Shown here in pieces: positions 4,336 through 64,000 of a stretch of 64,000 nt of DNA. Where the stretch lies: assembly GCA_016182495.1 (NCBI GenBank), contig JACPGK010000022.1:11092-75091 (forward strand), in the 5' to 3' direction. The first letter of the stretch is position 1, and each line of letters opens with the position of its first letter. The notes below the pieces were generated by a model. The model made no database searches, was not told where the DNA came from, and saw nothing but the letters and a program-made list of their open reading frames with translations. The stretch is from Candidatus Kerfeldbacteria bacterium. GTDB taxonomy: Bacteria > Patescibacteriota > Patescibacteriia > UBA9570. Position numbers and translations under genes: made by a program.

Positions 4336-5549
4336 AGTTTATCAACTTCAGCCAAGTTGAACGGTATCTACAGCGACAAGATCAGCACCGAGATGATTAT
4401 TACCAATTGCAACGGATGCAAACCGCCGTTAACCGATTACAGCATCCCGAACTGCGGTATCAAGTGATTCAGGTTGGCGGCACATCGGGTAAGGGTTCTA
4501 CCTGTGCTATGATCGCTGCTATTGTGCAACAAGCCAGCTGGCGCGTTGGGCTCTATTCATCACCAGCTCTGCCAACAACGTTGCACCGTATCATGGTGAA
4601 TCAGCGGCCAGTGGCTGCTGGCACGGTAGTACGCTTAATGAATACAATACAATCCCGTTTAACAACTTGTCACCTCACCAGCTTTGAATGGTGGACAATC
4701 CTAGCCTTTCAATATTTTGCTGAACAGCAGGTTGATTACGCCATAGTAGAAGTAGGCGTTGGCGGTCGCTACGATGCTACCACTGTAGTACAACCAACGG
4801 TCGCAATTGTAACCGACATTGGTTTAGATCATACCGAAATACTGGGTAAAACCAAAACTGCTATTGCTCAACACAAAGCCGCTATTATCAAACCAGGTGT
4901 AGTGGGTTTTACTGGTTCACGCTTGGTTAAGCGCGGTCGATACGTTAATTTGAATGGTGCGAGCATACATCACGCTAGTCTACGCGGCACGACCTTTTCC
5001 TATAAACAGTGGCATCATATTACTTTAGGTGTACCGGGTGTATTTCAAGTACGCAACGCTATTTTGGCCCTCACCGTGGCTAATCACTTATCCATTCCAG
5101 TAACAGTCGTGCGTCGAGCTTTAGCCCATCTAACATTACCGGCTCGTTTTCAAATACTGCAACGCCAACCATTAATCATTGCCGATGGCGCTCACAATCC
5201 TCAAAAAATGGCTGCCTTTATTGATTCGTTTCAACAGCTGGTGCCGCGTAAACTTGACCAGCGGGTGATTGTATTGTTATCCATCAAGTATACCAAAGAT
5301 CTTTACCATACCTTGCAGCCAATTATGGCAGTGGCCGACGAGGTCATCATCACAGCTTTCTCTGATAGTGCCCCACTGGGCGATATTAAAACAGTGCTGC
5401 AACAGTTTAAACCAACCTTACCAATACAGCTGATGCCAAATAGCCAGCAAGCCTATCAACAGTTGCAACATCGTTTGACAAGACGCGATGTTGGTGTTAT
5501 TACGGGTTCGTTGTATTTGTTAGCCGACCTCTATTCTGTGATATACTAG
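4332..5549 (+). CDS. folC: Mur-ligase family protein, FolC-like folylpolyglutamate synthase/dihydrofolate synthase
   Basis: It has the P-loop VGGTSGKGST, the DGAHNP motif and Mur-ligase central and C-terminal domains. It overlaps the murG stop by 4 nt. Confidence 0.7.
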   Translation: MKFINFSQVERYLQRQDQHRDDYYQLQRMQTAVNRLQHPELRYQVIQVGGTSGKGSTCAMIAAIVQQASWRVGLYSSPALPTTLHRIMVNQRPVAAGTVVRLMNTIQSRLTTCHLTSFEWWTILAFQYFAEQQVDYAIVEVGVGGRYDATTVVQPTVAIVTDIGLDHTEILGKTKTAIAQHKAAIIKPGVVGFTGSRLVKRGRYVNLNGASIHHASLRGTTFSYKQWHHITLGVPGVFQVRNAILALTVANHLSIPVTVVRRALAHLTLPARFQILQRQPLIIADGAHNPQKMAAFIDSFQQLVPRKLDQRVIVLLSIKYTKDLYHTLQPIMAVADEVIITAFSDSAPLGDIKTVLQQFKPTLPIQLMPNSQQAYQQLQHRLTRRDVGVITGSLYLLADLYSVIY

Positions 5550-5558
5550 CGCTAGGGT

Positions 5559-6926
5559 ATGGATATGAAACTCGTGCAATCAATTTATTGCATTGGCATT
5601 GCCGGAGCTGGTATGTCAGGTTTGGCGCGACTACTAAAATTACGTGGTAAACAAGTCAGTGGATCAGATTTAGTTGATAGCCCAATAACCCAAGCATTGC
5701 AGGCTGAAGGGATTATGGTGCATGTATTACAACAGGCCAATCACGTACCGCTGGATTGTGATTTGTATGTCTATTCCGATGCTGTACCAGAAACAAATCC
5801 AGAACGAGCTGTTTTAATTCAGCGTGGGTTAGGTGATAAAACAGTCAGCTATTTTACGGCGGTTGGCGCTTTGATGAAACAGTATACACACCGCATCGCT
5901 ATTTCTGGCACGCATGGCAAAACCACTACTACGGCTATGCTCACTATGGTGTTACAAGAAGCTGGCCTAGATCCCACCGCTATCATGGGCAGTATGCTCA
6001 AGGAACTACATAGTAATGTGCGCGTGGGCGCTAACCAAGATGTTTTTATTATCGAAGCCTGTGAATACAAAGCGCACATGCTGCAGCTGCATCCCACCAC
6101 GATCATTGTGAGCAATATTGAAGAAGACCATTTAGATTATTATCGGGATATTGATCATATCCAAATGACCTTCCAGCAATTTGTGAATATGTTGCCGGCT
6201 GATGGGTTATTTATCCGCAACGCCGACGATTCTGAAAGTCGGGAACTCGGTTTTGATGGTACCACTGTTTCGTATGGCTTAGTTGAACCAGCCGATGTGA
6301 TGGCTATCGATATTAAAAAAGATGGTCAAAAGCAATCATTCAAAGTAGGGGACACGCGGTATACGTTATCCGTGCCAGGCGATTTTAATATTTATAATGC
6401 TCTAGCGGTAATTGCCTATGCTCGGCATTTAGGTATTGCTGGTAAAATTATTCAAGCCGCTTTGAGAAAGTTTACTGGTACTTGGCGTCGCTTTGAAGTG
6501 GTCGGAGAATATCGCCAAGCTACCATTATTTCTGACTACGCCCATCATCCTACGGCTGTCACCGCCACTATTAAGGCGGCTAAAGAATGTTATCCGCAAC
6601 GCCGCATCGTAGTGGTATTTCAACCCCATCAGCATAATCGCACTCGGCGTTTATTCAAAAAATTTGTCACCGCCTTCGACGCGGCTGATTTAGTCATTAT
6701 TCAAGAAATTTATGATGTGGCTGGCCGCGAAGCCAAAGAGGATCAAACTGTGTCATCACATGATATCGTGAATACGATTGAACAAACCGGTAAATTAGTA
6801 TTGTATTCGCCGGATGGCACAAAAACAAAAAAACTTTTGGCCGAACATATTGAACCAAACGATGTTGTATTGATTATTGGAGCGGGAGATATTTATCGAG
6901 TAGCTGAAGAATTAAGCAATGTTTGA
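5559..6926 (+). CDS. murC: UDP-N-acetylmuramate--L-alanine ligase MurC
   Basis: MurC-specific N-terminus IYCIGIAGAGMSGLARLL..G..VSGSD, Mur ligase P-loop GTHGKTTTT, length 455 aa. Confidence 0.9.
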   Translation: MDMKLVQSIYCIGIAGAGMSGLARLLKLRGKQVSGSDLVDSPITQALQAEGIMVHVLQQANHVPLDCDLYVYSDAVPETNPERAVLIQRGLGDKTVSYFTAVGALMKQYTHRIAISGTHGKTTTTAMLTMVLQEAGLDPTAIMGSMLKELHSNVRVGANQDVFIIEACEYKAHMLQLHPTTIIVSNIEEDHLDYYRDIDHIQMTFQQFVNMLPADGLFIRNADDSESRELGFDGTTVSYGLVEPADVMAIDIKKDGQKQSFKVGDTRYTLSVPGDFNIYNALAVIAYARHLGIAGKIIQAALRKFTGTWRRFEVVGEYRQATIISDYAHHPTAVTATIKAAKECYPQRRIVVVFQPHQHNRTRRLFKKFVTAFDAADLVIIQEIYDVAGREAKEDQTVSSHDIVNTIEQTGKLVLYSPDGTKTKKLLAEHIEPNDVVLIIGAGDIYRVAEELSNV

Positions 6927-8191: not shown

Positions 8192-10885
8192 ATGGCACTG
8201 CTCACAAAATTATTTGGCGATCCTAGCGCCAAAGCAATTAAACAGTTGCAGCCAGTAGTGCAACGCATTACGGCCCTAGAAGCACAGTTTCAGTCATTGA
8301 GCGATGATGAACTGAAAGCTAAAACTGTCGAATTCAAACAACGGCTAAGCCAACATGAAACCCTTGAGCAACTTCTGCCAGAAGCTTTTGCCACAGTTCG
8401 AGAAGCTTCGCGCCGAGTGTTAGGGCAACGTCATTACGATGTGCAATTGCTTGGCGGCATGGTGTTACATCATGGTAAAATTGCCGAAATGAAAACTGGT
8501 GAAGGCAAAACGCTTACTGCTACTCTGCCAGTGTATTTGAATGCCTTAACTGGTCGAGGCGTACATGTGGTGACAGTGAATGATTATTTAGCTCGCCGTG
8601 ACGTTGATTGGATGGGGCGGTTATATCATTGGTTAAATTTGAGTGTTGGGTGCATTCAAAACCAAGGGGTGAGTTATCTATTTGATCCCGATTATCAAAA
8701 GCGGGCTGATACCACTGACCAAAGTACCGTCACCGATACCGAATTGGCCTTTAAAGTAGACATGGATAATTTACGAGCCGTTGATCGTACAACAGCCTAT
8801 CAAGCCGATATCACCTATGGCACCAATAACGAATTTGGTTTTGATTATTTGCGTGATAATATGGTGCAAACCATTGATCAGCGCGTGCAACGAGGCTGGT
8901 TATCTTATGCCATTGTCGATGAAGTCGATAGTATCTTAATCGATGAAGCCCGCACCCCATTAATTATTTCCGGGCAAGCCGAGGCAGCTACCAAGCAGTA
9001 TTATCGGTTTAGTCAGTTGGTGGAGCAATTGGTGGAAAATGACGATTATAACATTGATGAAAAAATGCGCGTGGCTACCTTAACCGATGGTGGCATTGCC
9101 AAAATGGAACAGTGGTTGGATGTGGTCAACATTTACGAAGCTGGCGGCGTAACTTTAGTACATCATATTGAGCAAGCCTTAAAAGCCCAAACCTTGTTCA
9201 AGCGCGATCGTGATTATGTCGTCAAAGATGGCGAGGTGATTATTGTCGATGAATTCACCGGTCGTTTAATGCCCGGACGTCGTTACAGTGAAGGATTACA
9301 TCAGGCCATTGAAGCGAAAGAACGCTTAGAAATTAAGCGCGAATCACGCACTCTGGCTACCATTACCTTTCAAAACTTGTTCCGGTTGTATGAAAAATTA
9401 GCCGGTATGACCGGTACAGCCGAGACAGAAAAAGAAGAATTTTACAAAATTTATAAATTAGATGTCGTTGTCATTCCAACCAATCAACCAATGGTGCGAC
9501 GCGATGGTTCAGATGCTATTTATCGTACCGAACGAGGCAAGTTTAAAGCCGTCGTCAACAAGGTTAGTGAGTTGCATCAGCAAGGGGTGCCAGTATTGGT
9601 TGGAACAATTTCAATTGAAAAAAATGAAATTCTGTCACAGTTATTAAACCAAGCTGGCGTGCCACACCAAGTGTTGAATGCTAAACAGCACGAACGCGAA
9701 GCCGAGATTATCGCGCAAGCTGGTCAGTCTGGAGCGGTCACCATTGCCACCAATATGGCTGGGCGAGGGGTAGATATCATCTTAGGCGGCAATCCGCCCG
9801 ATACTGTCCAGGCCGAGATCGTTCGCAGTGTTGGTGGTTTATTTGTGCTTGGTACCGAGCGTCACGAAGCCAGGCGAATTGATAATCAGTTACGTGGTCG
9901 ATCTGGTCGGCAGGGTGATCCCGGCAAGACGCAATTTTTTGTATCAATGGAAGATGACTTAATGCGTATTTTTGCCACCGATCGGATTAAAAAAATTATG
10001 GGTACACTGAATTGGCCCGAAGATATGCCCATTGAGAATGCCATTGTCAGCCGATCAATTGAAACTGCTCAAAAGAAGGTTGAGGGACATAATTTTGATA
10101 TTCGTGAACATCTCGTTAAATACGATGATGTCATGAATAAACATCGAGAGGTGATTTATCGAAAACGCAATGAAATTTTAAAATCCCCACCTGAAGATAT
10201 TAGTACACTGATCATGGAATTGGTTGAAAACGAAATTGAACAAATTGTATCATTTCATACCAATTTAGAAAATGAACATCAATGGAACATTCAAGAAATT
10301 TACGAATCAATCCGATCAATCTTTCCGGTGGATGAGCAGGTATTGGCTGATATAAAAGCTAAACAGCAGCAAGCCGGTAACAAACTGCAAGATGCCCAAG
10401 CACGTACTAGCCTGGTAGAATATTTGGTACGATTAGCTACTAACCGCTATCAAGCGATGGTGGCCGAAGTTGATAACGCCGAAGTGGTCTATAAAATTGA
10501 ACAAGGCTTTTATCTGCGCGCCATTGATACGTTATGGATCGAACATCTCGATCAAATGAGTTATTTACGTGAAGGCATTAGCTTGCGTGGTTATGGCCAG
10601 CGCGATCCATTAGTAGAGTATAAAAAAGAAGCCTACAGCATGTTTAGCGAATTAATCGCCAACATCCAAAAGCAAGTAGTGTACAGTATTTTCAAAATGG
10701 CCGATGCGTATTCGTTAGCACCATCGGAAATGAAGCAAGTGAAACAAGAGCTACACGGTGCTAAAAAAACGATGGGAAATGATCAAGCCGACTCGCCGAA
10801 CGACTTAGCAAAAGTAGGACGCAACGATCCTTGCCCCTGTGGCTCGGGGAAGAAGTATAAAAAGTGCCATCTCATTGGGAACTAA
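8192..10885 (+). CDS. secA: Preprotein translocase ATPase SecA
   Basis: It has the DEAD motor motifs ([38 protein letters not shown]) and the C-terminal zinc-binding tail [13 protein letters not shown]. Length 897 aa. Confidence 0.97.
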
Positions 10886-13478: not shown

Positions 13479-13922
13479 TTAGAAATTTAGCTTTAAATCG
13501 CTGTGCTTTACTAATTGTGTGGCTACGAGTTTATCCTTAAACCAAATTCTGACCTCGGCCAGCCCAGGTTGCGTATTTGGCACAACTCTTAAATCAACGG
13601 CGTGTCGTTGTGGTACGCCGGACACGGTAATTTCCAGATTATGAAAGGATATTTTTCGGTAGTTGTCGACGACGCGTTGGTCGCGCAAGGCAAAGATATC
13701 CTTACTCGATTTAAATGGTGGCTTAATGGTAAATGGTCTAAACAATGTCTGTCCGGTATGGATAGCCTGGTCTAATCTGACCCTGGGAATTTGTTTGGTA
13801 GTGGAATGTACCCAAACATTGTTGTATTGGTAAACCAGTTCTTTTAAGACCTTTCTTACTTCTTCTGGTTCAGTAATCTGTTCTTTACAGTATAATGACG
13901 ATGCGATCTTGTAGCCACTGGT
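13479..13922 (-). pseudogene. 5'-truncated hypothetical gene (remnant)
   Basis: The minus-strand frame is open from the TAG at 13922-24 to the stop at 13479. It has no ATG; only a TTG at 13745 (88-aa track ORF). Its 5' end abuts the transposase remnant. Confidence 0.35.
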
Positions 13923-55870: not shown

Positions 55871-56617
55871 CTATGATAGTGGACTTTTTATGTTTTTAAG
55901 CTTTGGATTTGTAACATGGGTATACTGTTGGGTGGTTCTAATATTCTGATGGCCAAGCAACTCTTGAACATAACGAATATCAACACCGTTTTCTAATAAG
56001 TGAGTAGCAAAGCTATGTCTTAAGCTATGAAAGGTGGCATTTTTTTGGATCCCAGATTTTTTTAAAGAATTTTCAAAAATTTTTTGAGCACTTCTCGTTG
56101 TTAAGTTTCCGCCCCGCTCACTTGCAAAGATAAAATCATCATGATTTTTTCCGCTGCACAAATTTTTAAGATCAGCTACCAATTTTTCTGGCAATATACT
56201 CATTCTATCTTTTTGCCCCTTAGCTTGTTTGATATGAATGGTTAGTTCAGCAAGATCAATATCTTTTACCTTTAGTGCAACCACTTCACTCACTCTAAGT
56301 CCTGCGCCATAAGAAAGTGACAATAAAATTTTGTGTTTTGTATTTTTGGTTGTCTCTAAAATTTTTTCAATTTCTATTCTTGATAATACTATAGGCAAAC
56401 TTTTTGGTTTTTTAGCAGATTGGATATCAATTTTTTGGTTATTTTTCACTACATCTCGATAATAAAACTTAATTGCATTTAGAAATAAATTTCTGCTTTG
56501 CGCAGAGGTATTCTTTTGTTTGCACTCTAATAAAAAGTCTTTGATATTATCTGGCTGTACTATTTCAAAGTTTTGTTTTTTAAAGCAAAAGTATTTTTGT
56601 AAGCCATAAAGGTACAT
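55871..56617 (-). CDS. Tyrosine site-specific recombinase (XerC/D-like phage-integrase family), possibly N-terminally truncated
   Basis: The catalytic residues are in canonical order: R (AGLRVSE), HxxR (HSLRHSFATHLL), Y (RTTQQYTHV). At 248 aa only about 60 aa of the core-binding domain are present. Confidence 0.8.
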   Translation of the reverse strand: MYLYGLQKYFCFKKQNFEIVQPDNIKDFLLECKQKNTSAQSRNLFLNAIKFYYRDVVKNNQKIDIQSAKKPKSLPIVLSRIEIEKILETTKNTKHKILLSLSYGAGLRVSEVVALKVKDIDLAELTIHIKQAKGQKDRMSILPEKLVADLKNLCSGKNHDDFIFASERGGNLTTRSAQKIFENSLKKSGIQKNATFHSLRHSFATHLLENGVDIRYVQELLGHQNIRTTQQYTHVTNPKLKNIKSPLS

Positions 56618-56647
56618 TTTTACAGTTTTTGGACTATAATTTCTGAT

Positions 56648-56700
56648 GTTCAGTTCTCGTTCAGTTCTCGTTCAGTTCTCGTTCAGTTCTCGTTCAGTTC
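56648..56700. repeat. Tandem 11-bp direct repeat (GTTCAGTTCTC) x4.8
   Basis: Seen directly, 31 nt upstream of the recombinase start codon, between the recombinase and the cassette region. Confidence 0.9.
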
Positions 56701-56714
56701 GATTTAGTTGTTTT

Positions 56715-56743
56715 TGCATAATTGTTTGAAATGTTGTATAATA
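56715..56743 (+). promoter_or_regulatory. Consensus-like sigma70 promoter directed into the cassette region
   Basis: TTGCAT (56715-20), a 17-nt spacer, TATAAT (56738-43). Confidence 0.45.
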
Positions 56744-56825
56744 AAAAAGTTTTATTACGAAACAAATAATACCATCTATTCATATAATATACAATAAAAT
56801 AATTATTTTTAAATTTTTATTCGTA

Positions 56826-56980
56826 TAATAACTAGTTGTGCAAAATCGCTCCGCTCTTTGCACAACGCCTCGCGGTTCCCGCTGTTGCACTCGTCGCTCC
56901 GCGACATCGCACAACAGCGGCTAGACTCCATGTCGATCTGAACACTGCGTGTTCATCTTGCCACGGCGCCTAGCCGCGAG
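56826..56980. repeat. GC-rich structured repeat element copy A (attC-like / MITE-like)
   Basis: About 155 bp with outer inverted repeats AACGCCTCGCGG / CCGCGAGGCGTT. Nested stems are TTGTGCAAA..TTTGCACAA, CCGCTGTTG..CAACAGCGG and TGAACACtgcGTGTTCA. It ends in GTTAGGC. Confidence 0.6.
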
Positions 56981-57125
56981 GCGTTAGGCGACATATTTTT
57001 GAAAATTTGTTTTTAAAAGAGGGTGATTATAAAGTGTTTTCTTCACTTCGTTACGAAAACTATTTAAATATTAGCGGAAATTTTTATATAATGATTACAA
57101 CTTTTAATTTATAAAGAGAAAAAAT

Positions 57126-57578
57126 ATGAAAGAGAAATTTTATGAAAAATATGCTTGGGTAATTTTTCTTGTTATCGGTCTTATGGTTTTAGTAGGGGGA
57201 ATGCCCCATATGTTAGGGGTTAATACAGACCCAGCTTTAGTTGAAACCATTAGCGGACAAACAATAGATGAACTTAAATCATCAAGTCCGATGTTCTTTG
57301 ACTTATATAATTTTTATTTTAGTGGGGGAGGTTTGTCTGATGTGGGGGTTGCTTTTTTCCTGTTAGTCATTTCCATATTTGCCTATAGAACAGGTCAAAA
57401 ATGGGCTTGGTATGCTTTTTGGTTTGTCCCGGTTTACTTTTTATTTTGGATAGCCCTCAGTTCAGCCCTGCCATCCGCATCACAATCGTTGCTACTTTCG
57501 CCATTAATAGTGATTATAGTTTTAAGTCTCGCGGGATTACTCTTGCCTTTTAGAAAGTTTTTTCCAAAAAAACAATAG
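57126..57578 (+). CDS. Hypothetical 4-TM membrane protein (cassette ORF)
   Basis: 150 aa, hydrophobic, AT-rich codon usage distinct from the upstream chromosome. Confidence 0.5.
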   Translation: MKEKFYEKYAWVIFLVIGLMVLVGGMPHMLGVNTDPALVETISGQTIDELKSSSPMFFDLYNFYFSGGGLSDVGVAFFLLVISIFAYRTGQKWAWYAFWFVPVYFLFWIALSSALPSASQSLLLSPLIVIIVLSLAGLLLPFRKFFPKKQ

Positions 57579-57899
57579 ATTCGATCCAATCGCAGGAGAG
57601 ATTATCTAATATTAACCTCAAATTATGCGTTACTAAAAAAAATCAAATTACCAAAAAATTTTATAACAAATAATTTATAATTAAAAGAGATACTACCATG
57701 AAAAACATAAATAAAAAACCCACAAAAAACGAAAATAATATGGATAAATTTTTCAAAAATACGCAAGGCACGTTGCACTCTCACTCCGCTATCGCTCCGT
57801 TCGGCTCGCCTAACACAGTATATGCGATTCGCTCGTTGCACTTCGCTCTCCCATATTTTTCTCCGTTTCACTCCGCAAAACATCGCATATACTGAAACG

Positions 57900-58050
57900 T
57901 TGTGTAAAATCGCTCCGCTCTTTGCACAACGCCTCGCGGTTCCCGCTGTTGCACTCGTCGCTGCGCGACATCGCACAACAGCGGCTAGACTCCATGTCGA
58001 TCTGAACACTGCGTGTTCATCTCGCCACGGCGCCTAGCCGCGAGGCGTTA
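57900..58050. repeat. GC-rich structured repeat element copy B
   Basis: Over 95% identical to copy A, with degenerate fragments in the preceding ~140 bp. It ends in GCGTTAT immediately before ATG 58052. Confidence 0.6.
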
Positions 58051-58051
58051 T

Positions 58052-58573
58052 ATGCCATTAGCAAAAAAAATGAAGCATCCGGTACCAAATCAACATCTAA
58101 TCCATATCGGTGACGTCGTCGTCTCTTTTGCACTATTAGAACTAGCGATCCAAAGTCTAATAGGATCATTAATATTCGAACATCAAAGGGTAGGCCAAAT
58201 TATCACAGCGGAACTTTCATTTAAAAATCTACGCGCACTTGCAATTAGTCTTTACCTTGATAGGCATGGTGAAGATAGCGACTATTCAAAATTGAAACCA
58301 TTGATGAACGAGGCTGGCAAAATTGAGGAGACACGAAACAATATAATTCACTCCATTTGGGCCGCAGGCAAGGATAAAGACCATATCACCAGAATCAAAA
58401 CAACCGCAAAAGAGAAAAAAGGGTTAGCATTTTGCTTTGAAGAATTATCAGTAAGCGACTTAGAAAGTTTCGCTGGGAAAATACAGCAATGTGCTGGAAG
58501 TGTTCAAAGTTTCAATTTTGAATTAATTAAGACCAAGAAGGCTATTAATAATCCTATTCTGAAGTTGTGGTAG
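58052..58573 (+). CDS. Hypothetical protein with Rx4H (HEPN-like) motif (cassette ORF)
   Basis: Start chosen at MPLAKKMKHPV, directly after repeat B; the track start at 58013 lies inside the repeat. It contains the motif ETRNNIIHSIW. Confidence 0.45.
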   Translation: MPLAKKMKHPVPNQHLIHIGDVVVSFALLELAIQSLIGSLIFEHQRVGQIITAELSFKNLRALAISLYLDRHGEDSDYSKLKPLMNEAGKIEETRNNIIHSIWAAGKDKDHITRIKTTAKEKKGLAFCFEELSVSDLESFAGKIQQCAGSVQSFNFELIKTKKAINNPILKLW

Positions 58574-58697
58574 TTTTTTTGCTAACAGCATATAACAGCG
58601 TGTATACAGCTTGTTCACTTCCTGCGTGCGTTCACTCGCCCAAATTTGACTTATTTTTTATTTAGTGATAAATTAGAAGCATAAAATTACTAAACAT

Positions 58698-58919
58698 ATG
58701 CGCAAAATAGACCTCAAATCAGTGGTATGGAAAGAGGGTGATTATTACGTCTCCCAATCTTTAGATGTTGATGTTTCCAGTTTTGGCAAAACAAAAAAAG
58801 AGGCCCTGACAATGCTGCAAGATGCTTTGGCGTTATACTTTGAAGATGTTCCACTACCAATAAAGACAGAGCGTGTGAAAGAACCGTCTATTGCTTCGGT
58901 TACTCTGCAGCATGCCTAA
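58698..58919 (+). CDS. hicB: HicB-family antitoxin (second copy)
   Basis: 73 aa (..WKEGDYYVSQSLDVDVSSFGKTKKEALTMLQDALALYFE). Overlaps the HicA start by 8 nt (ATGCCTAA). Confidence 0.65.
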   Translation: MRKIDLKSVVWKEGDYYVSQSLDVDVSSFGKTKKEALTMLQDALALYFEDVPLPIKTERVKEPSIASVTLQHA

Positions 58920-59127
58920 ACCATATCCACTTCGACTTGTCATTAAAGTCCTTGAAAACAAGGGCTTCTTTTTTGTTTCTCAAACTGGCTCACACGCCAA
59001 ATATCGCAAAGCAGGGATTCAAACACTGACCGCCATTGTGCCAATTCATGGTAAAGAAATCCGTTATGGTACTTTTCGGTCTATTTTGCGACAAACAAAA
59101 TTAAAAGAGGAGGATTTTCAAGATTAA
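58912..59127 (+). CDS. hicA: HicA-family toxin (second copy)
   Basis: MPKPYPLRLVIKVLENKGFFFVSQTGSHAKYRK...IPIHGKEIRYGTFRSILRQTKL matches the HicA/YcfA signature. Confidence 0.7.
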   Translation: MPKPYPLRLVIKVLENKGFFFVSQTGSHAKYRKAGIQTLTAIVPIHGKEIRYGTFRSILRQTKLKEEDFQD

Positions 59128-59151
59128 AAAAATAAGTCAAACTTTGCATAC

Positions 59152-59215
59152 ACCATGTCGATCTGAACACTGCGTGTTCATCTTGCCACGGCGCCTAGCC
59201 GCGAGGCGTTAGGCG
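59152..59215. repeat. GC-rich structured repeat element, 3' half only (copy C)
   Basis: It matches the last ~65 bp of copies A and B, including TGAACACTGCGTGTTCA and the terminal CCGCGAGGCGTTAGGCG. Confidence 0.55.
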
Positions 59216-59281
59216 AAATAATTCTTGAAAATTCCCTATTGAAATGAAATTTTTATTTCCCTTTCCAAAAATTAAGTCCTT

Positions 59282-60196
59282 ATGATGAAAATAGAAAAAG
59301 AAATTGCCGAACGTATCTACAATTACGAAAATCCAAAAAAAATTGCTCTTTCCAGAAAATATCCATTTCTAAAAAAGCCAATTATTTTTTTGCGTCATTT
59401 ATTTCGAGATATACAAAATTTTTTTGATTTTAGGATTAAATATGAAAGAAAAAATGATTTTTTCGACTGTATTATAGCAAGGCATCAATCAGTATTAAGA
59501 CGCAAGCTCGGAGATAGTAATCCAAAGCTACAAGAACAAAAGATTGTTAATCTTAAACAAGCTATTCAACGATTAAATGGCATAGTTATACAACCAAATC
59601 ATGTCTTTTCGCTTTGGAATATTATCGGTAAGCCAAAATATGAAAACGGATATGTTGATGGAATGCTACTGTCAAACGGCAAAGTTGTAGAGGGAATCGG
59701 TGGCGGACTTTGCCAATTATCCAATTTTCTTTACTGGATTTTTCTACATGCCCCAATTGAGACGACTGAGAGGTATCATCACTCTATGGATGTTTTTCCG
59801 GATTCTGGCAGAACTTTGCCGTTTGGCGGAGGAGCAACAATTTTATACAATTTCATTGATCTAAAAGTAAAAAACATATCAATATATCCGTTTCAGTTAA
59901 AAATATGGCTTACCGATAATCATTTGAAGGGTCAAATACTATCTCCTCGCCCCATAGCACAAAAATTTCATATTTTTGAAAAAAATCATTTTTTCGTTAA
60001 AAGAGGTAAAAAATATTTTCGATATAATGAAATTTACAAAGAAACTAAAATTGGTGGGAAAGTAGAAAAAATCGAAAAAATTACCACAAATTTTGCACCA
60101 GCGCTTTACAAGGTGACAGATGAATATCTGCAAAAAAATAATTTTAGGATTTTGGATTTTACGAACAGGGAAATAAAAATTTTAAATAAGGAATGA
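59282..60196 (+). CDS. VanW-like domain protein (cassette ORF)
   Basis: The motif GIGGGLCQLSNFLYW resembles the VanW family GGGVCQ core. 304 aa. Confidence 0.5.
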   Translation: MMKIEKEIAERIYNYENPKKIALSRKYPFLKKPIIFLRHLFRDIQNFFDFRIKYERKNDFFDCIIARHQSVLRRKLGDSNPKLQEQKIVNLKQAIQRLNGIVIQPNHVFSLWNIIGKPKYENGYVDGMLLSNGKVVEGIGGGLCQLSNFLYWIFLHAPIETTERYHHSMDVFPDSGRTLPFGGGATILYNFIDLKVKNISIYPFQLKIWLTDNHLKGQILSPRPIAQKFHIFEKNHFFVKRGKKYFRYNEIYKETKIGGKVEKIEKITTNFAPALYKVTDEYLQKNNFRILDFTNREIKILNKE

Positions 60197-60211
60197 ATTT
60201 TCAAGAATTAC

Positions 60212-60241
60212 AACGCCTCGCGGTTCCCGCGAGGCGTTAGC
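60212..60241. repeat. Solo hairpin formed by the element's terminal inverted repeats (AACGCCTCGCGG ttc CCGCGAGGCGTT)
   Basis: A perfect 12-bp stem with a 3-nt loop, followed by AGCTGAAAT as at copy E. Confidence 0.6.
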
Positions 60242-60259
60242 TGAAATTCATTTCAAAAT

Positions 60260-60730
60260 ATGAACATAAATAAACATCTCAAAAATCTATCTCCTTATGG
60301 CATGGGCAAGAAAGATTTTGAAATAGAAAAAAATGAACTTGAAAAAAAATTTGGCCAACAGCCAACTGATCAAGATGTGTTGTATTCACTTTTTAATAAA
60401 CTAGTTGTTCAAACAAGTGATTTTCAAGATTTAAAATCTATTTATTATTCAATGGCACTTTTTTTAAATGAAGAAGGACATGACAGTCTAAATGCTAATA
60501 GATCAAGCGCAAAAATGGGACTAGCAGCGTTAAAAAATTTTGGAGTAAAAAAAGTAGAAATTCTTGTTAATTCAGGTTGTGAAGAATGTCAGAAATTAGC
60601 AGGCCAAATTTTTGACATAGATAAAGCAATGACTGATTTGCCCATACCAAACCAGGCGTGCAAATACGATTTGAATAATAATGATAAGCCACTTTGCCGA
60701 TGTGAATATTTACCTGTTATTGATGATTGA
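60260..60730 (+). CDS. Hypothetical protein with C-terminal Cys cluster (cassette ORF)
   Basis: 156 aa with SGCEECQ...ACKYD...LCRCE. No family recognised. Confidence 0.4.
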   Translation: MNINKHLKNLSPYGMGKKDFEIEKNELEKKFGQQPTDQDVLYSLFNKLVVQTSDFQDLKSIYYSMALFLNEEGHDSLNANRSSAKMGLAALKNFGVKKVEILVNSGCEECQKLAGQIFDIDKAMTDLPIPNQACKYDLNNNDKPLCRCEYLPVIDD

Positions 60731-60782
60731 AATGAACTTCACCTAACACGGGCTAGTCGCTTCGCTCACTAATTTTTTTTCA

Positions 60783-61118
60783 ATGCAACAAAAAATTGAA
60801 TTGCAAGAATTTTCCATCAAACTAACAAATTTATATCCCCGGCTCAGAATTTGGACAGACGGTCGAGTATATGAAATTAAAGAGTTAGTTGGACAAAAAA
60901 ATAGTCTCAAATTTTACATTTATCCTGAAGACCATAATCCACCCCATTTTCATGTTATTAGCCAAAATGGTGACGTAGACGTCAGTTTTAAGATTGAAGA
61001 TGGAAAATTCTTACGAGGAAAGGCTAAACGAAAATTTGACCTAAAGAAAATTCAATATTTTTATGATCAATACAGGCCAGAGTTACAAAGTAAATGGAAT
61101 GCATTTCAAAAAAATTAG
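60783..61118 (+). CDS. DUF4160-family protein
   Basis: It has the motif HNPPHFHV, characteristic of DUF4160. 111 aa. Confidence 0.6.
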   Translation: MQQKIELQEFSIKLTNLYPRLRIWTDGRVYEIKELVGQKNSLKFYIYPEDHNPPHFHVISQNGDVDVSFKIEDGKFLRGKAKRKFDLKKIQYFYDQYRPELQSKWNAFQKN

Positions 61119-61119
61119 T

Positions 61120-61215
61120 TCGTTCACTCAAATTGCTTCCTGTCGGCTGTGATGATAAGATCATATTACAGCCACAGTCAGCAACTTCGGCTAGCCTGAA
61201 ACGTTAGCTGAAATA
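61120..61215. repeat. Divergent attC-like element (copy E)
   Basis: Imperfect inverted repeat CGGCTGTGAT..ATTACAGCCACAG, then TTCGGCTAGCCTG, ending GAAACGTTAGCTGAAAT. It shares the 3' end with copy D. Confidence 0.4.
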
Positions 61216-61359
61216 TTCCTTTTCTTTTTTGGGCTTCGCCCGAGTGTTTACAAAAATTATCAAATTTCTTTCCCTCTCATCATTAAGTAGGGGAAATTTC
61301 AGTATTAATTTAATTGAATTGACATTACGTTTCATATCTGATACACTATTGTCATAATT

Positions 61360-61977
61360 ATGAAAAGCAGGAAAAACCTTTTAGAACAACTTAAAAACTT
61401 ACCTTATTTCAGTAAAAGTACTGTGTATCAGCTTGGGACACAGTTAGGGCTCAAGAATACCTCGGTTGATACTTATATCAGTCGCTTCTTGAAATCCAAA
61501 GAAATTTTCCAGTTAAAAAGGGCTTTATACGTATCCTCAGATTTCTATAACAGAAATAAGGATGATATTTCCTGTTCGTTTTATCTTGCCAATGTTATTC
61601 GTACTCCATCATATGTAAGTTCATGGGCGGCACTTCAGTACTATAATCTCACAACGGAAGCTATTCATTCTGTAACCTCGGTAACGCCCAAGGTTACAAG
61701 ACAGTACCAGACAAAGGCTGGAAACTTTGCCTATCAGTCCATCAAGAAGGAGTTATTTTCAGGATTCTCATTGGTTAAGGGTAGATTTGATTTCTTCATC
61801 GCTTCACCCTCAAAGGCACTATTTGATCTCCTGTATTTCAAGACTCGACAACTTCGTAGCATGAGTCAGGAAAACATTAATATGCTGATAGAGGAACTAA
61901 GAGTAGATATTAATGAGATGGAAACCCAGGAGCGAGAAAAGTTTTATACCATGATTAATAAACACGTTCATGAGTGA
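61360..61977 (+). CDS. AbiEi-like type IV toxin-antitoxin antitoxin (wHTH)
   Basis: 205 aa upstream of an AbiEii-like nucleotidyltransferase, overlapping it by 8 nt. N-terminal winged-helix-like region. Confidence 0.5.
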   Translation: MKSRKNLLEQLKNLPYFSKSTVYQLGTQLGLKNTSVDTYISRFLKSKEIFQLKRALYVSSDFYNRNKDDISCSFYLANVIRTPSYVSSWAALQYYNLTTEAIHSVTSVTPKVTRQYQTKAGNFAYQSIKKELFSGFSLVKGRFDFFIASPSKALFDLLYFKTRQLRSMSQENINMLIEELRVDINEMETQEREKFYTMINKHVHE

Positions 61978-63253
61978 ACAAATATTAATTATTCTTAAAA
62001 GAGAGCTTGATGAGCTCTCTCTGTATGGCGATCTTGATGCCGAAACCCGTAGAAACAAGCTTAAAGAGGCTTTGCAGTATTACATTCTCAATTTCATTTA
62101 TCACCATCCTGAATATAGCAAATGGGTGATGTATGGAGGTTCGGCACTTCGAATCATTCACGGTCTTGATCGAATGTCAGTGGATCTGGATTTTGAAGTA
62201 TCACACACTGTAACAGGAATCTTTTTAGAGGAGCTAAAAAAGGAACTTGAGGATCACTATAAAAATACGTATGGGGTGGGTTCTAATTTCCTGACAATAA
62301 AAATAACGACAGGCAGAGGACTCCTTCTAAAATTCCATGTTGGCGAAGCATTAGGTTTTGGCCACACTTCCAATCAAGTTCATGTAAAAATAGACCTCAA
62401 CCATTTCGTCGCTCCTAAAACTGTTACTGAGCGTCGGCCGATGAACCGTGATCAGCTTTCTTTTGTTATTTCGACCTACAATATGTCTGCTTTGATGGCA
62501 AGTAAGATAGCCGCCATTTTTTTGCGTGGGACTCGCGGTGTGGGTGAAGCTGTGTACAAGGAAAAGGGACGGGATATTTACGACCTTCTTTGGTATATGA
62601 ATAAAAAAGTGGTTCCTGATATTGATTATCTTGTTGCCAAAGGTATTGATGTAAACGATCCACGGGCGATTTTTGACAAGCTCACACTGCAGATGAATAA
62701 AGTGAGCGATGAAAATCTCAAGCAGGACCTTATGCCGCTTTTTACAAATCGCATATACGTTGAGAACTGGCTTCAGAATTGGCGAGAAAGCTATCTGCGA
62801 CTGCTTGATGATTACAAAATACGCACTGTTACAGAAATAGAGCATATCAGAGTGCACCACGACTTAATGCCAGATAATTTCTATTTCATTTATACCTATA
62901 AAACAGAAGATAGCGGGTTTGTTCGCGTTATGTATTCGATGAGCGATTACTGGATTGATTTTAACGAAGGTAATTTGCCAACCAAAGAAAGCGAGAAAAT
63001 AAAAGATAAGGTTGAATTTACAAGCAATGGAGCGACAAGTCATCCGCCGTCTGAAGATAAATTGAGACAGTATGCCACGCTTTTTTATCAGAAGACGGAA
63101 GATTATTTCAAGAAAACTAACCGAATCATGTTCGGTGATACGATCACAACAAAGCTTATACGCATGACGTCAGATAAACTAAATCCAAAAGAGCAGATCG
63201 TGCTTAATAAGTCGGCATTACTCTCTTGTGAGCTTGATGATTTATTGAAATGA
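61970..63253 (+). CDS. AbiEii/AbiGii-family nucleotidyltransferase toxin (DUF1814)
   Basis: The motif VMYGGSALRIIHGLDRMSVDLDFEV matches the GG[ST]AL...R.S.DlDF signature. Confidence 0.65.
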   Translation: MSEQILIILKRELDELSLYGDLDAETRRNKLKEALQYYILNFIYHHPEYSKWVMYGGSALRIIHGLDRMSVDLDFEVSHTVTGIFLEELKKELEDHYKNTYGVGSNFLTIKITTGRGLLLKFHVGEALGFGHTSNQVHVKIDLNHFVAPKTVTERRPMNRDQLSFVISTYNMSALMASKIAAIFLRGTRGVGEAVYKEKGRDIYDLLWYMNKKVVPDIDYLVAKGIDVNDPRAIFDKLTLQMNKVSDENLKQDLMPLFTNRIYVENWLQNWRESYLRLLDDYKIRTVTEIEHIRVHHDLMPDNFYFIYTYKTEDSGFVRVMYSMSDYWIDFNEGNLPTKESEKIKDKVEFTSNGATSHPPSEDKLRQYATLFYQKTEDYFKKTNRIMFGDTITTKLIRMTSDKLNPKEQIVLNKSALLSCELDDLLK

Positions 63254-63795
63254 AGGCGAAAAGAAATTTGATAATTTTTGCTCGCCTCTCTTGCTATTTA
63301 GATGACCACTCAGACGAAATACCTGAAGAAAGAGTGATGGGTGCCGGAAGTTTCAAAGTGAGGGCAATTGGTTTCAGGGCGCTCTGAGTAACACTGAATT
63401 TGCTCTCCGTACGTATTGCAACAATCCAGAGCTATTATATGATTGAGGGGCGCGCGGTGTTTTCGCAGCGTAGCTGAGAAAACAATTTTTAAAATACACC
63501 CTATCAAAAAAGAACACGCCGTTTGTGGTTGGCGACGTAATAGCTTACAAACGAAACGGTAAATTGTTTAACAGGGCATTCGGCAGAATTGAAAAAGTCA
63601 ACACACTTGACGAAGGTTGATCGTACGAAGTATTTACCGTGTCGGGTGGTCAGGTGTTTACGGAAAAAGTCATGCACGATTGGATCTTTGCCAGAAATTA
63701 AACATTTTAGTAAACGCCCATAAAAATTCAACATTTTAGTTAAAACCCACTTTTTGATGTTACTATATCAGTATAGTGACATAGTAAGTGCAATC

Positions 63796-63824
63796 TTGAC
63801 TAGACTACCTTAATTGGCTATAAT
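63796..63824 (+). promoter_or_regulatory. Consensus-like sigma70 promoter upstream of the partial gene at window end
   Basis: TTGACT, a 17-nt spacer, TATAAT, then a GGATAT..ATATCC hairpin and ATG 63856. Confidence 0.4.
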
Positions 63825-63855
63825 TGGATATAGTTAAAATATCCAATTTGAATAT

Positions 63856-64000
63856 ATGCCTAAGATTAGCCAAAAAAATACAGAAAAACATGAGATTTTT
63901 GACAATTTTGTCAAACGAATTGAACAAATCCCTTTTAACATTGTTTCCAAAATCGCTAAAATTGACGAATTAAAAGGGCAGTGGATAACTGGGGCACGCC
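63856..64000 (+). CDS. 5' end of a gene continuing beyond the window (hypothetical; possibly Fic-like N-terminus)
   Basis: The frame is open for 48 codons from the ATG to the window edge (MPKISQKNTEKHEIFDNFVKRIEQIPFNIVSKIAKIDELKGQWITGAR). Confidence 0.3.
   Translation, partial: MPKISQKNTEKHEIFDNFVKRIEQIPFNIVSKIAKIDELKGQWITGAR

Follow-up and report, generated by a model that had tools for sequence, protein, structure and literature searches.

The 64,000-nt window analysed here, from a Candidatus Kerfeldbacteria bacterium of the candidate phyla radiation (CPR), contains four GC-rich repeat copies (A-D), all on the + strand and inside positions 56826-60241, beside a gene for a tyrosine recombinase. 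These repeats are almost certainly recombination sites of a recombinase-linked cassette array, and very probably the array is integron-like, mobile and served by the adjacent Xer-type recombinase. The recombinase gene is divergent from a one-directional + strand array of ~1-kb units, each holding one gene or gene pair, and the array begins, at an attI/dif-like site, about 120 nt upstream of the recombinase's ancestral start codon. A cassette would be the unit from one G|TT to the next, and the platform the recombinase gene together with its dif-like site. The cassette site is a ~100-nt imperfect palindrome composed of R'' (..NNNN-AAC), an unpaired A, a 12-nt L'', a variable region of two hairpins, L', 3-5 unpaired nt and G|TT. 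The features of the locus, with open reading frames given as ORFs, are:

55871-56719, - strand: tyrosine recombinase gene, XerA-like/IntI-like (open frame 55871-56617, ancestral ATG at 56719-56717, in-frame TGA between them)
56648-56702, no strand assigned: tandem repeat of 11 bp (GTTCAGTTCTC, 4-5 units) within the recombinase gene, at its 5' end
56818-56846, + strand: attI/dif-like site (left arm TATTCGTATAA, 7-nt spacer TAACTAG, G56835|T56836, right arm TTGTGCAAAAT)
56836-56983, + strand: copy A, which is cassette c1 (148 bp, without an ORF)
56984-57899, + strand: cassette c2, with an ORF at 57126-57578 (150 aa, no family), a GC-rich module at about 57761-57803 and a type-1 site at 57804-57909
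57900-58047, + strand: copy B, which is cassette c3, a second instance of the cargo-less 148-bp cassette
58048-59208, + strand: cassette c4, with an ORF at 58070-58573, R''/L'' at 58590-58610, a HicB-like gene at 58698-58919, HicA at 58891-59127, an L' remnant at 59147-59154 and copy C
59150-59208, + strand: copy C, which matches the last 59 nt of A at 98%
59209-60236, + strand: cassette c5, with a VanW-like ORF at 59282-60196 (Pfam VanW 2.9e-39) and copy D as its site
60212-60238, + strand: copy D, AACGCCTCGCGG-TTC-CCGCGAGGCGTT, a 12-bp outer stem with a TTC loop
60237-61203, + strand: cassette c6, with an ORF at 60260-60730, R''/L'' at 60741-60760, a DUF4160 ORF at 60783-61118 and the 3' part of its site at 61119-61203, closing at AAACG61203|TT
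61204-64000, + strand: further cassette(s), with an ORF at 61360-61977, an AbiEii toxin gene at 61970-63253 (Pfam 7.7e-22) and a Fic-family gene past the window

The repeats and the cassette array

The proteins of the array are, in order, a 150-aa protein, a 167-aa protein, HicB/HicA (HicA: Pfam 2.5e-15), a VanW-like protein, a 156-aa protein, a DUF4160 protein and a pair ending in the AbiEii toxin. HicAB, AbiEii, DUF4160 and VanW are typical cassette cargo. The array extends beyond the end of the window, and its Fic gene is seen on contig L001. The best-formed site of the window belongs to c2, with R'' GCCTAAC, L'' CAGTATATGCGAT, L' ATCGCATATACTG, spacer AAAC and crossover G57899|TT.

As the initial annotation had described them, A and B are nearly identical (98% over 149 nt, 95% over 163 nt), C retains only the 3' half of the element (59 nt, 98% identical to the 3' end of A), D at 60212-60238 is the outer stem alone on a 3-nt loop, and the element is GC-rich in an AT-rich background (~60% against a local 34-37% G+C). 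Every one of the four stems that it listed is present in minimum-free-energy DNA folds, and these folds were more stable than those of shuffled sequences, none of 200 shuffles being as stable (z = -5.2 for the top strand, -7.6/-6.9 for the bottom strands of A/B and -6.0 for copy D). The 12-mer CCGCGAGGCGTT occurs exactly seven times in the window, always at 56.8-60.3 kb, and with up to two mismatches it gives 8 matches against 2.6 expected. Copy A is composed of the following parts:

56836-44, + strand: start and first arm, TTGTGCAAA
between 56844 and 56857, + strand: 12-nt loop ATCGCTCCGCTC, the place where cargo would sit
56857-65, + strand: second arm (arm'), TTTGCACAA
56867-56904, + strand: GC-rich module
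56905-56986, + strand: inner type-1-like site, CATCGCACAAC-A-GCGGCTAG, hairpin TGAACAC/GTGTTCA, CTAGCCGC-GAGGC-G|TT

The 12-bp outer stem of A pairs 56864-75 with 56974-85 and is the start of the GC-rich module paired with L' and the spacer; in A, B and D it abuts AAC/GTT with no internal loop. Each repeat copy ends in G|TT, followed by a TT(A/G)NNNNGAAAT-like sequence. A begins exactly at the platform crossover, G56835|TT, right after the conserved motif TTCGTATAATAACTAG, and B begins exactly at G57899|TT, the crossover of the preceding and different palindromic site of c2. A and B are each a complete miniature cassette whose cargo has shrunk to a 12-nt loop, and C, at whose end c4 closes (G59208|TT), is an A-type site of which the 3' part alone is present, joined on to what remains of another site's L' (59147-59154). 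On its left D has 21 nt in common with A and B, on its right no fewer than 12 nt, and the simplest origin for it is a deletion running from the CCGC at 56879 to that at 56974; because it lacks the left-arm-like part, it may be inactive or dead. The suggestion of the annotation that the copies are a recombination substrate caught in different states was therefore right as to recombination, the copies being sites and junctions of a cassette array, and only loosely right as to states, since A and B are an intact cargo-less cassette, D most probably a deletion and C a fused 3' part of a site. What it had taken for scrambled fragments of the element at 57760-57899 is a separate, well-formed site of another subtype (57804-57909, 79.6 bits) together with a GC-rich module, and the ORFs called across 57623-58037 are, as it had proposed, artefacts of non-coding recombination sites.

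Units homologous to the element, with compensatory changes in stem 1, are present in other genomes, which answers the refuting condition of the initial annotation (neither further copies nor compensatory changes). Homologous A-type units occupy equivalent junctions in other loci, directly behind the platform site in L072 and L047 and behind a type-1 site in L059. Across them stem 1 is compensated (TTGTGCAAA/TTTGCACAA, TTATGCAAAA/TTTTGCATAA, GTTGTGGCGC/GCGCCACAAC), the GTCGC/GCGAC hairpin does not vary, stem 3 is confined to the window and L072 mirrors the outer stem in part only. A scan for promoters gave 17 sites in comparison to 17.4 expected, leaving the idea of A/B as a promoter cassette unsupported; a TTTGCA-18-TATAAT sequence at 56713-56742 (+ strand) has a position that would fit a cassette promoter and is not significant.

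Site covariation, cassette ends and shuffling

Type-1 sites were sought across the collected loci by their structure. A scan for AAC, arm, arm' and GTT found 53 sites on the sense strand of the array side, compared with 10-11 on the other side of the recombinase. For a non-circular test, sites were picked by their 3' sequence AC(T/A)TC-N11...GTT alone; an upstream complement with at most two mismatches was present in 43 of 108, as opposed to 3/49, 3/54 and 1/42 in the controls, and it was nearly always preceded by (A/C)(T/A)AAC, which the search had not required. An alignment of 21 sites shows the invariant blocks AAC-A, CCCA(A/T)ATT, AAC(T/A)TC and ACGTT, and RNAalifold recovered the L stem together with a second, unselected helix, 12 of the 17 pairs being compensatory.

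A covariance model built on this family gave 71 hits at E<=0.01 in 667 kb (67 of them on the divergent side and in cassette sense), at a density of up to 9 per 10 kb, and none in 31 loci with distant Xer genes, whose recombinases are 33-38% identical. In the model alignment, which was fitted to the model, 94% of cells are paired (68% for shuffles, 31-47% for slid partners), and two-sided changes occur in 14 of the 17 pairs, with AAC and GTT invariant. Over its 10-12 bp the L stem is fully paired, and its sole asymmetry is a single unpaired 5' nt facing 3-5 unpaired 3' nt; the combination of extrahelical L-box bases and an unpaired central spacer that sets strand choice in integron attC sites was not found in the type-1 sites. 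The best four matches of the model in the window are all on the + strand and inside the array. The c2 site (57804-57909) leads with 79.6 bits (E 6e-16); in B and A the match covers the 3' two-thirds of the copy, at 57969-58057 with 19.6 bits (E about 0.05) and at 56905-56993 with 18.7 bits (E about 0.08); the fourth is the site of the DUF4160 cassette (61099-61213; E about 0.2). The remaining matches in the window have E >2.9.

A hallmark of integron cassettes is found at the cassette ends. Among consecutive sites, R'' can pair with the beginning of its own cassette at 5.1 of 6 variable positions (perfectly in 37/63), whereas with the physically adjacent R' it does so at 3.2/6 (6/67 perfect), which is the level of random pairs (3.1/6). 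Within the window each cassette's 5' end likewise pairs best with its own interior (scores of 25, 36, 33 and 32 on the diagonal, <=23 off it), and c2, c4, c5 and c6 agree in this. The 5' end of c2 pairs with its own 3' region; the start of c4 (58047-58069) is complementary to 58574-58596 at 21/23 positions and that of c6 (60236-60256) to 60727-60747 at 19/21; in c5, 59211-59234 pairs with 60195-60218, within arms of about 70 nt (72 nt) that are 72% complementary. In c4 and c6, where R'' lies ~600 nt upstream of the cassette end, the pairing runs from the G of G|TT exactly to AAC, over 23 and 21 nt. This pairing of each cassette with its own end indicates that the units are circularly permuted and, like those of integrons, exchanged at G|TT, with a much longer end complementarity.

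Cassettes are also shuffled between strains. Contigs that have an identical recombinase (P0004) and the same right flank, from MurD onward, differ in their gene sets on the divergent side. A PALP cassette starting G|TTATATGAC stands behind the platform motif in L006 and L007 and behind another cassette's palindrome in L009, and a cassette with TTATACGCAATTCAAAAAATATTTTT at its start turns up again in several lineages and contexts. In contig L119, which comes from another sample (SRR12113428), the 5' end of the recombinase gene is followed by the platform site, A, G|TTAGGCGAAATAATTC and VanW; the contig lacks c2, B and c4 (56984-59208), so that A is joined straight to the VanW cassette. Unitigs assembled from other samples stop 22 nt short of G|TT (L118, L120) or begin 2 nt beyond it (L001, L002), and contigs from other samples begin at 61206, by the junction of c6 with the next cassette (61203|TT). 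These variants of the source population fit rearrangement at the level of cassettes. One cassette is inverted in L005, where the site at 2754-2857 is opposite to the rest of its array.

Two further loci depart from the usual arrangement. In L083, whose recombinase is 45% identical, sites at 5502-5598, 9480-9575 and 13500-13587 lie on the strand of the recombinase gene; together with L005 this suggests inversions or a differently organised sub-family. At L012 7280-7472 (reverse strand), L'' (CGGCATATACGG) and L' (CGCATATACTG) of one site are not complementary, which suggests a hybrid from recombination between two sites.

Cargo genes are found inside sites as well. In c4 the HicBA genes lie between R''-L'' (58590-58610) and an AACTTTG-L' remnant (59141-59154), an interval that corresponds to hairpin 2 of other sites, and in c6 the DUF4160 gene lies between L'' (60749-60760) and L' (61190-61198), inside hairpin 1. 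The same HicBA unit with its arms is embedded likewise in a different CPR genome (L059, reverse strand, about 1060-1800), where L'' and L' differ from those of the window yet are mutually complementary. Searching the array sense strand for split sites of this kind gave 10 convincing cases (controls 0-2, shuffled arms about 1); exactly complementary 10-nt arms stand 438-1011 nt apart in 8/10, and in the other 2/10 the distance between the arms is ~160 nt. Cases with canonical flanks and an ORF-sized interval were noted in L040, L043, L051, L060 and others. The HicBA pair of the window (58590-59155) is flanked by 13-nt inverted arms of its own (TGACTTATTTTTT / AAAAAATAAGTCA), and the DUF4160 ORF (site 60741-61203) by 18-nt inverted arms (TAATTTTTTTTCAATGCA / TGCATTTCAAAAAAATTA) and a 9-nt direct repeat, TTCGCTCAC (60761-60769) and TTCGTTCAC (61119-61127), which looks like an insertion duplication or a second exchange point.

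Recombinase, platform and mechanism

The recombinase of the window (Pfam Phage_integrase 1.6e-44) is one of a very large clade of proteins of ~270 aa, which share 70-78% identity across many lineages of CPR. The truncated copy in the window scores 204 with the integron-integrase (IntI) model TIGR02249 (cutoff 265) and 203 with XerA_Arch (cutoff 220). Full-length relatives reach 226-232 with XerA_Arch (cutoff 220), end to end, and 216-227 with the IntI model (cutoff 265); protein by protein, P0004 (231.6) and P0052 (226.1) pass the XerA cutoff of 220 and P0036 (219.7) falls just below it. The best solved relative is the Vibrio integron integrase VchIntIA (2A3V, E 2e-46), but the alignment to it skips chain residues 180-245 (query 176/198), with ~43 residues missing, and TIGR02249 is matched in two separate stretches, with profile positions ~177-254 skipped between them. 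With archaeal XerA (4A8E) the alignment runs from end to end (E 1.6e-45). By the 2A3V and TIGR02249 alignments the IntI-specific additional domain (the I2 helix, around patch III) is absent from the recombinase; this domain is the defining feature of integron integrases (PMC9668308). An AlphaFold2 model from a shallow 15-sequence alignment had a mean pLDDT of 62, a pTM of 0.37 and a poor catalytic domain, and was left unused.

Three extra units of the 11-bp tandem repeat (33 bp) keep the frame of the window's gene, duplicate 'TERELN' and create the in-frame TGA, so that its 5' end translates as MQKQLNRTERELNEN, a stop and TRTERELNIRNYS, compared with the family consensus MQxxLxxTERELKIRNYS. 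To judge from its sequence, the gene would be either inactivated or restarting at Met 56617, and the tandem repeat could be a contingency (phase-variable) switch for the recombinase. The contig of the other sample (L119) also breaks inside this repeat.

About 35 loci share the conserved platform site, which lies upstream of the recombinase gene at a distance of ~60-190 nt (mostly ~90-120 nt) and has the consensus AaTTCGtATAa-AAACGAG|TTATgcGAAAT; in the window its right arm (TTGTGCAAAAT) is part of the first cassette. At a spacer of 7 nt its arms are complementary at 6.5 of 11 positions, in comparison to 3.3 for shuffled arms and 3.2-4.3 at spacers of 5, 6 and 8 nt, and the consensus itself reaches 9/11 at spacer 7. 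The site is a dif-like 11-7-11 palindrome. Xer dif sites have this layout of two 11-bp arms round a short spacer (PMC2958812), and in xerS/difSL the gene adjoins its own site, as a module (PMC5357621).

The sequence before the cut differs between the platform (AG|TT) and cassette sites (CG|TT), and it stays on the left; the spacers are 7 nt (AAACGAG) at the platform and 8-9 nt (..AAACG) at cassette sites. These differences indicate that exchange always falls at the boundary of spacer and right arm, and from the sequences we infer that only a single strand pair would be exchanged.

The sequences show the anatomy of the sites and cassettes, where the crossover falls, the link with one recombinase clade, the shuffling of cassettes between strains and the covariation of the sites. 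A mechanism that uses folded single strands is somewhat favoured by these observations. We infer that the sites would fold in vivo, that one strand pair would be exchanged and that the adjacent recombinase would be the catalyst. The 3' strand of a folded site (AC(T/A)TCG.ATAT, 8-9 nt, TT..GAAAT) would present a left arm, a partly unpaired spacer and a right arm, and would so mimic the dif-like site of the platform, as the CTX phage hairpin mimics dif (PMC7790495). The recombinase would swap one strand pair at the spacer/right-arm boundary and replication would resolve the junction. Exchange of a site with the platform would insert a circular cassette, and exchange between two sites would excise one; the head-to-tail circular junction of A/B would read ...CCGCGAGGCG|TTGTGCAAAA.

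A broader reading, which we put forward tentatively, is that of a living 'proto-integron' in CPR, a single-recombinase Xer/dif module without I2 that captures cassettes through folded, dif-mimicking sites. Cargo would then sit between sites or inside hairpin loops, and integrons, integrative mobile elements exploiting Xer (IMEX) and dif modules would form one continuum. Such a module would match the ancestral state of integron integrases postulated by Escudero and co-workers, in which a Xer-like ancestor is hijacked by single-stranded IMEX (PMC7790495).

Several observations weigh against the reading of the repeats as integron-like sites served by the adjacent enzyme. The recombinase lacks the insertion with which IntI reads extrahelical bases in canonical integrons, so recognition of a hairpin cannot work as in IntI, and the L stems are themselves fully paired, with a 1 x 3-5 nt internal loop as their only asymmetry. 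The window's recombinase gene has an in-frame stop. Copies A, B, C and D fit the site model weakly (E 0.05-0.08, the E-values being rough) and lack the AACTTC motif, and D also lacks the left-arm-like part. In 8/10 split sites the distance of 438-1011 nt between the arms is awkward for folding. Since A and C have a repeat of 60-84 nt in common, the L119 variant could have arisen by homologous recombination or by assembly across that repeat. Finally, a row of double-stranded dif-like sites with alternating orientation would be an equivalent description of this architecture.

The last point is the basis of the alternative that survives best, a purely duplex Xer mechanism in which dif-like sites alternate in orientation, as in the dif modules of Acinetobacter plasmids, or IMEX are stacked at the chromosomal dif; a housekeeping XerA would shuffle them by ordinary duplex exchange between direct or inverted sites, and the hairpins would be a by-product of closely spaced inverted sites. 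We consider it unlikely, though it accounts for much: a recombinase that passes the XerA model and fails the IntI model, a dif-like platform adjoining the gene as in xerS/difSL (PMC5357621), the inverted cassette in L005, and cargo in R'..R'' as well as L''..L' intervals, in the manner of the alternating C and D modules round pdif. Toxin-antitoxin (TA) and ORF-less modules are also common in dif modules, from which pairs of adjacent modules excise between direct sites (PMC13141974). However, the variable bases of the arms covary between inverted partners unit by unit, which base pairing maintains and duplex recombination need not. The differing spacers of platform and cassettes, with junctions at one spacer boundary, fit a single strand exchange. 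In L012, of which only contig fragments were examined (the 1186-2583 region was noted), the platform lies ~7 kb from dnaA, which argues against a terminus or dimer-resolution location in that genome.

Structured small RNAs, a further proposal of the initial annotation, or elements acting at the mRNA level, for processing, stability or termination, are a reading that we hold to be very improbable. The structures are strongly stable and strand-specific, the loop motif T(C)CGCTnCGCT(A)C lies on one strand (14, against 0, 1 and 1), terminator-like hairpins number 11 against 3.7 expected and the array is probably transcribed through. Yet Rfam 15 gave no match at gathering score in the entire window, the opposite strand folds at least equally well, the element boundaries are DNA breakpoints between strains, and the strongest conserved pairings join cassette ends 0.5-3 kb apart, an arrangement that is sensible for DNA recombination and not for a small RNA.

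The annotation's other reading, a non-autonomous transposon of the miniature inverted-repeat (MITE) type, for which the outer stem would be the terminal inverted repeat, D an excision footprint and C a truncated copy, draws on that inverted repeat, the multiple copies and the 'solo' form D, and is hardly credible and largely refuted: no target-site duplications were found at the copy ends, every copy lies in one 3.4-kb stretch of array beside the recombinase and none in the other 56 kb, the ends are the G|TT crossover common to unrelated sites, and no transposase is present. The element has no blastn match in plasmids and phages. An exact 19-mer scan of 185,579 species genomes gave 25 single matches, which we read as chance, all being in named high-G+C lineages except one in an unclassified 'bacterium' metagenome-assembled genome (MAG; L036); the source MAG is evidently outside this set. 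An exact 20-mer scan of JGI metagenomes gave none.

Known systems and further observations

The arrays can be compared with sedentary chromosomal integrons such as the V. cholerae superintegron with its ~125-bp V. cholerae repeat (VCR) attC sites. Both have an integrase gene divergent from a one-directional array with the insertion site beside the gene; in CPR this holds for about 35 loci with variable cassettes. In both, a cassette is mostly one promoterless gene plus an imperfect palindrome with AAC...GTT ends and a crossover at G|TT, and the R''-L''...L'-R' architecture of attC, in which structure is conserved over sequence, is that of the CPR sites. An inner box complementary to the cassette's own start, near-identical sites within an array (here A/B/C/D), TA and defence cargo and ORF-less cassettes are further likenesses. 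The CPR system differs from integrons in several respects: its recombinase scores as XerA and has no I2, its insertion site takes the form of a dif-like palindrome, extrahelical bases are absent from the L stem, end complementarity extends over 20-70 nt as opposed to 7 nt, a GC-rich module precedes R'' and ORFs can sit inside the site.

CTX-phi and IMEX resemble the CPR system in using a Xer-family enzyme without I2 and in that a single-stranded hairpin of two inverted half-sites would mimic dif (PMC7790495, PMC5357621); one strand exchange would be resolved by replication, and the elements pile up in tandem at the site. The CPR units differ in being ~1-kb single-gene cassettes rather than phages or islands, present by the dozen with one conserved site architecture, in having the recombinase gene linked to the site, and in the unit-specific, covarying arms of their sites.

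The dif modules of Acinetobacter Rep_3 plasmids (pdif) resemble the CPR arrays in geometry, with Xer-type sites that alternate in orientation and small gene modules in both intervals, and also in TA and ORF-less modules, deletions and inversions between sites, and an excisable unit that is a pair of adjacent modules (PMC13141974). CPR arrays, in contrast, are chromosomal and lie beside a single xerA-like gene rather than XerC/XerD; one interval is usually 50-100 nt, so that two sites make a hairpin; the arms covary pairwise; and platform and cassette spacers differ.

The xerS/difSL system and archaeal XerA/dif likewise use a single Xer alone, and xerS/difSL has its gene beside the site (PMC5357621); the full-length CPR proteins match the XerA model from end to end, and the site has an 11-spacer-11 layout (PMC2958812). 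These systems resolve chromosome dimers and have no cassette array; the CPR spacer is 7 nt; and in Thermococcales dif is not beside xerA (PMC2958812), unlike the CPR platform.

We found no prior description of such arrays in CPR/Patescibacteria in the full-text literature searched and no reports of integrons in CPR, most subscription journals lying outside the coverage; CPR go unmentioned in the IntegronFinder 2.0 and archaeal-integron papers. The arrangement is widespread in CPR and similar to the state proposed as ancestral to integrons. Xer-like enzymes are the presumed source of integron integrases, which would have gained the I2 helix and with it the ability to recombine folded single strands, and we know of no natural intermediate between the two. 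The clade described here lacks I2, scores as XerA and stands beside a dif-like site and arrays of up to nine or more shuffling, hairpin-bounded cassettes; if the enzyme really uses these sites, the origin of integrons would become experimentally testable with a natural system.

CPR have tiny genomes, and little is known of their gene exchange. If our reading is right, standard software for finding integrons, dependent as it is on the IntI domain, would classify these platforms as integrase-less, so that a major platform for gene exchange in CPR would be missed. ORFs within sites, and 'empty' hairpins with a conserved loop at cargo positions, would bear on how cassettes gain genes, and the arrays would be a chromosomal counterpart to the Acinetobacter dif modules, whose single-module mobility is unexplained.

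These 'empty' hairpins have variable stems, carry the loop motif named above and occupy positions where other cassettes hold cargo ORFs. There are 14 on the array sense strand, with 0, 1 and 1 in the controls; a crude regular expression for the motif gave 2-fold enrichment, and the structural tests were used instead. By its sequence and placement the motif may be a protein-binding or cargo-loading site. Its places are:

56845-56856, 57786-57796 and related positions, array sense strand: loop motif in the window
L006, L009, L039, L040, L047, L061, L066, L067, L072 and L078: loop motif in other loci

An element near the 5' end of several unrelated cassettes (57013-57075 in the window, similar in L005, L009, L059, L067 and L078) joins a Shine-Dalgarno-like AGAGGG(T/G)GAT, ~8 nt, (A/G)TG and a hairpin GTTTTC-loop-GAAAAC that holds the loop motif; it may be a short leader ORF or a shared translational element.

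The GC-rich module that precedes R'' is ~40 nt long (..C(A/C)CG(C/T)TGC(G/A)CTCTC..CGG..) and lies between the AT-rich end arm and R''. It is present at 57761-57803 and 56867-56904 in the window and upstream of R'' in L006, L009 and others, is conserved among distant lineages of CPR, and no partner with which it would pair is evident. The notion that A's 5' extension is a general mask of R'' was rejected, the GC modules of other sites not being complementary to their R''/L''.

The distal cassettes carry defence and addiction genes, namely the AbiEii toxin with an upstream 205-aa partner and then the Fic-domain gene; in L011 and L012, too, the first cassette is a Fic-like gene. By analogy with what has been proposed for sedentary integrons, the arrays may be stores of defence and toxin-antitoxin genes. 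Lastly, Logan contig L003 begins at 1-19 with AGATGTGTATAAGAGACAG, which we take to be a Nextera transposase adapter left untrimmed in the public assembly.

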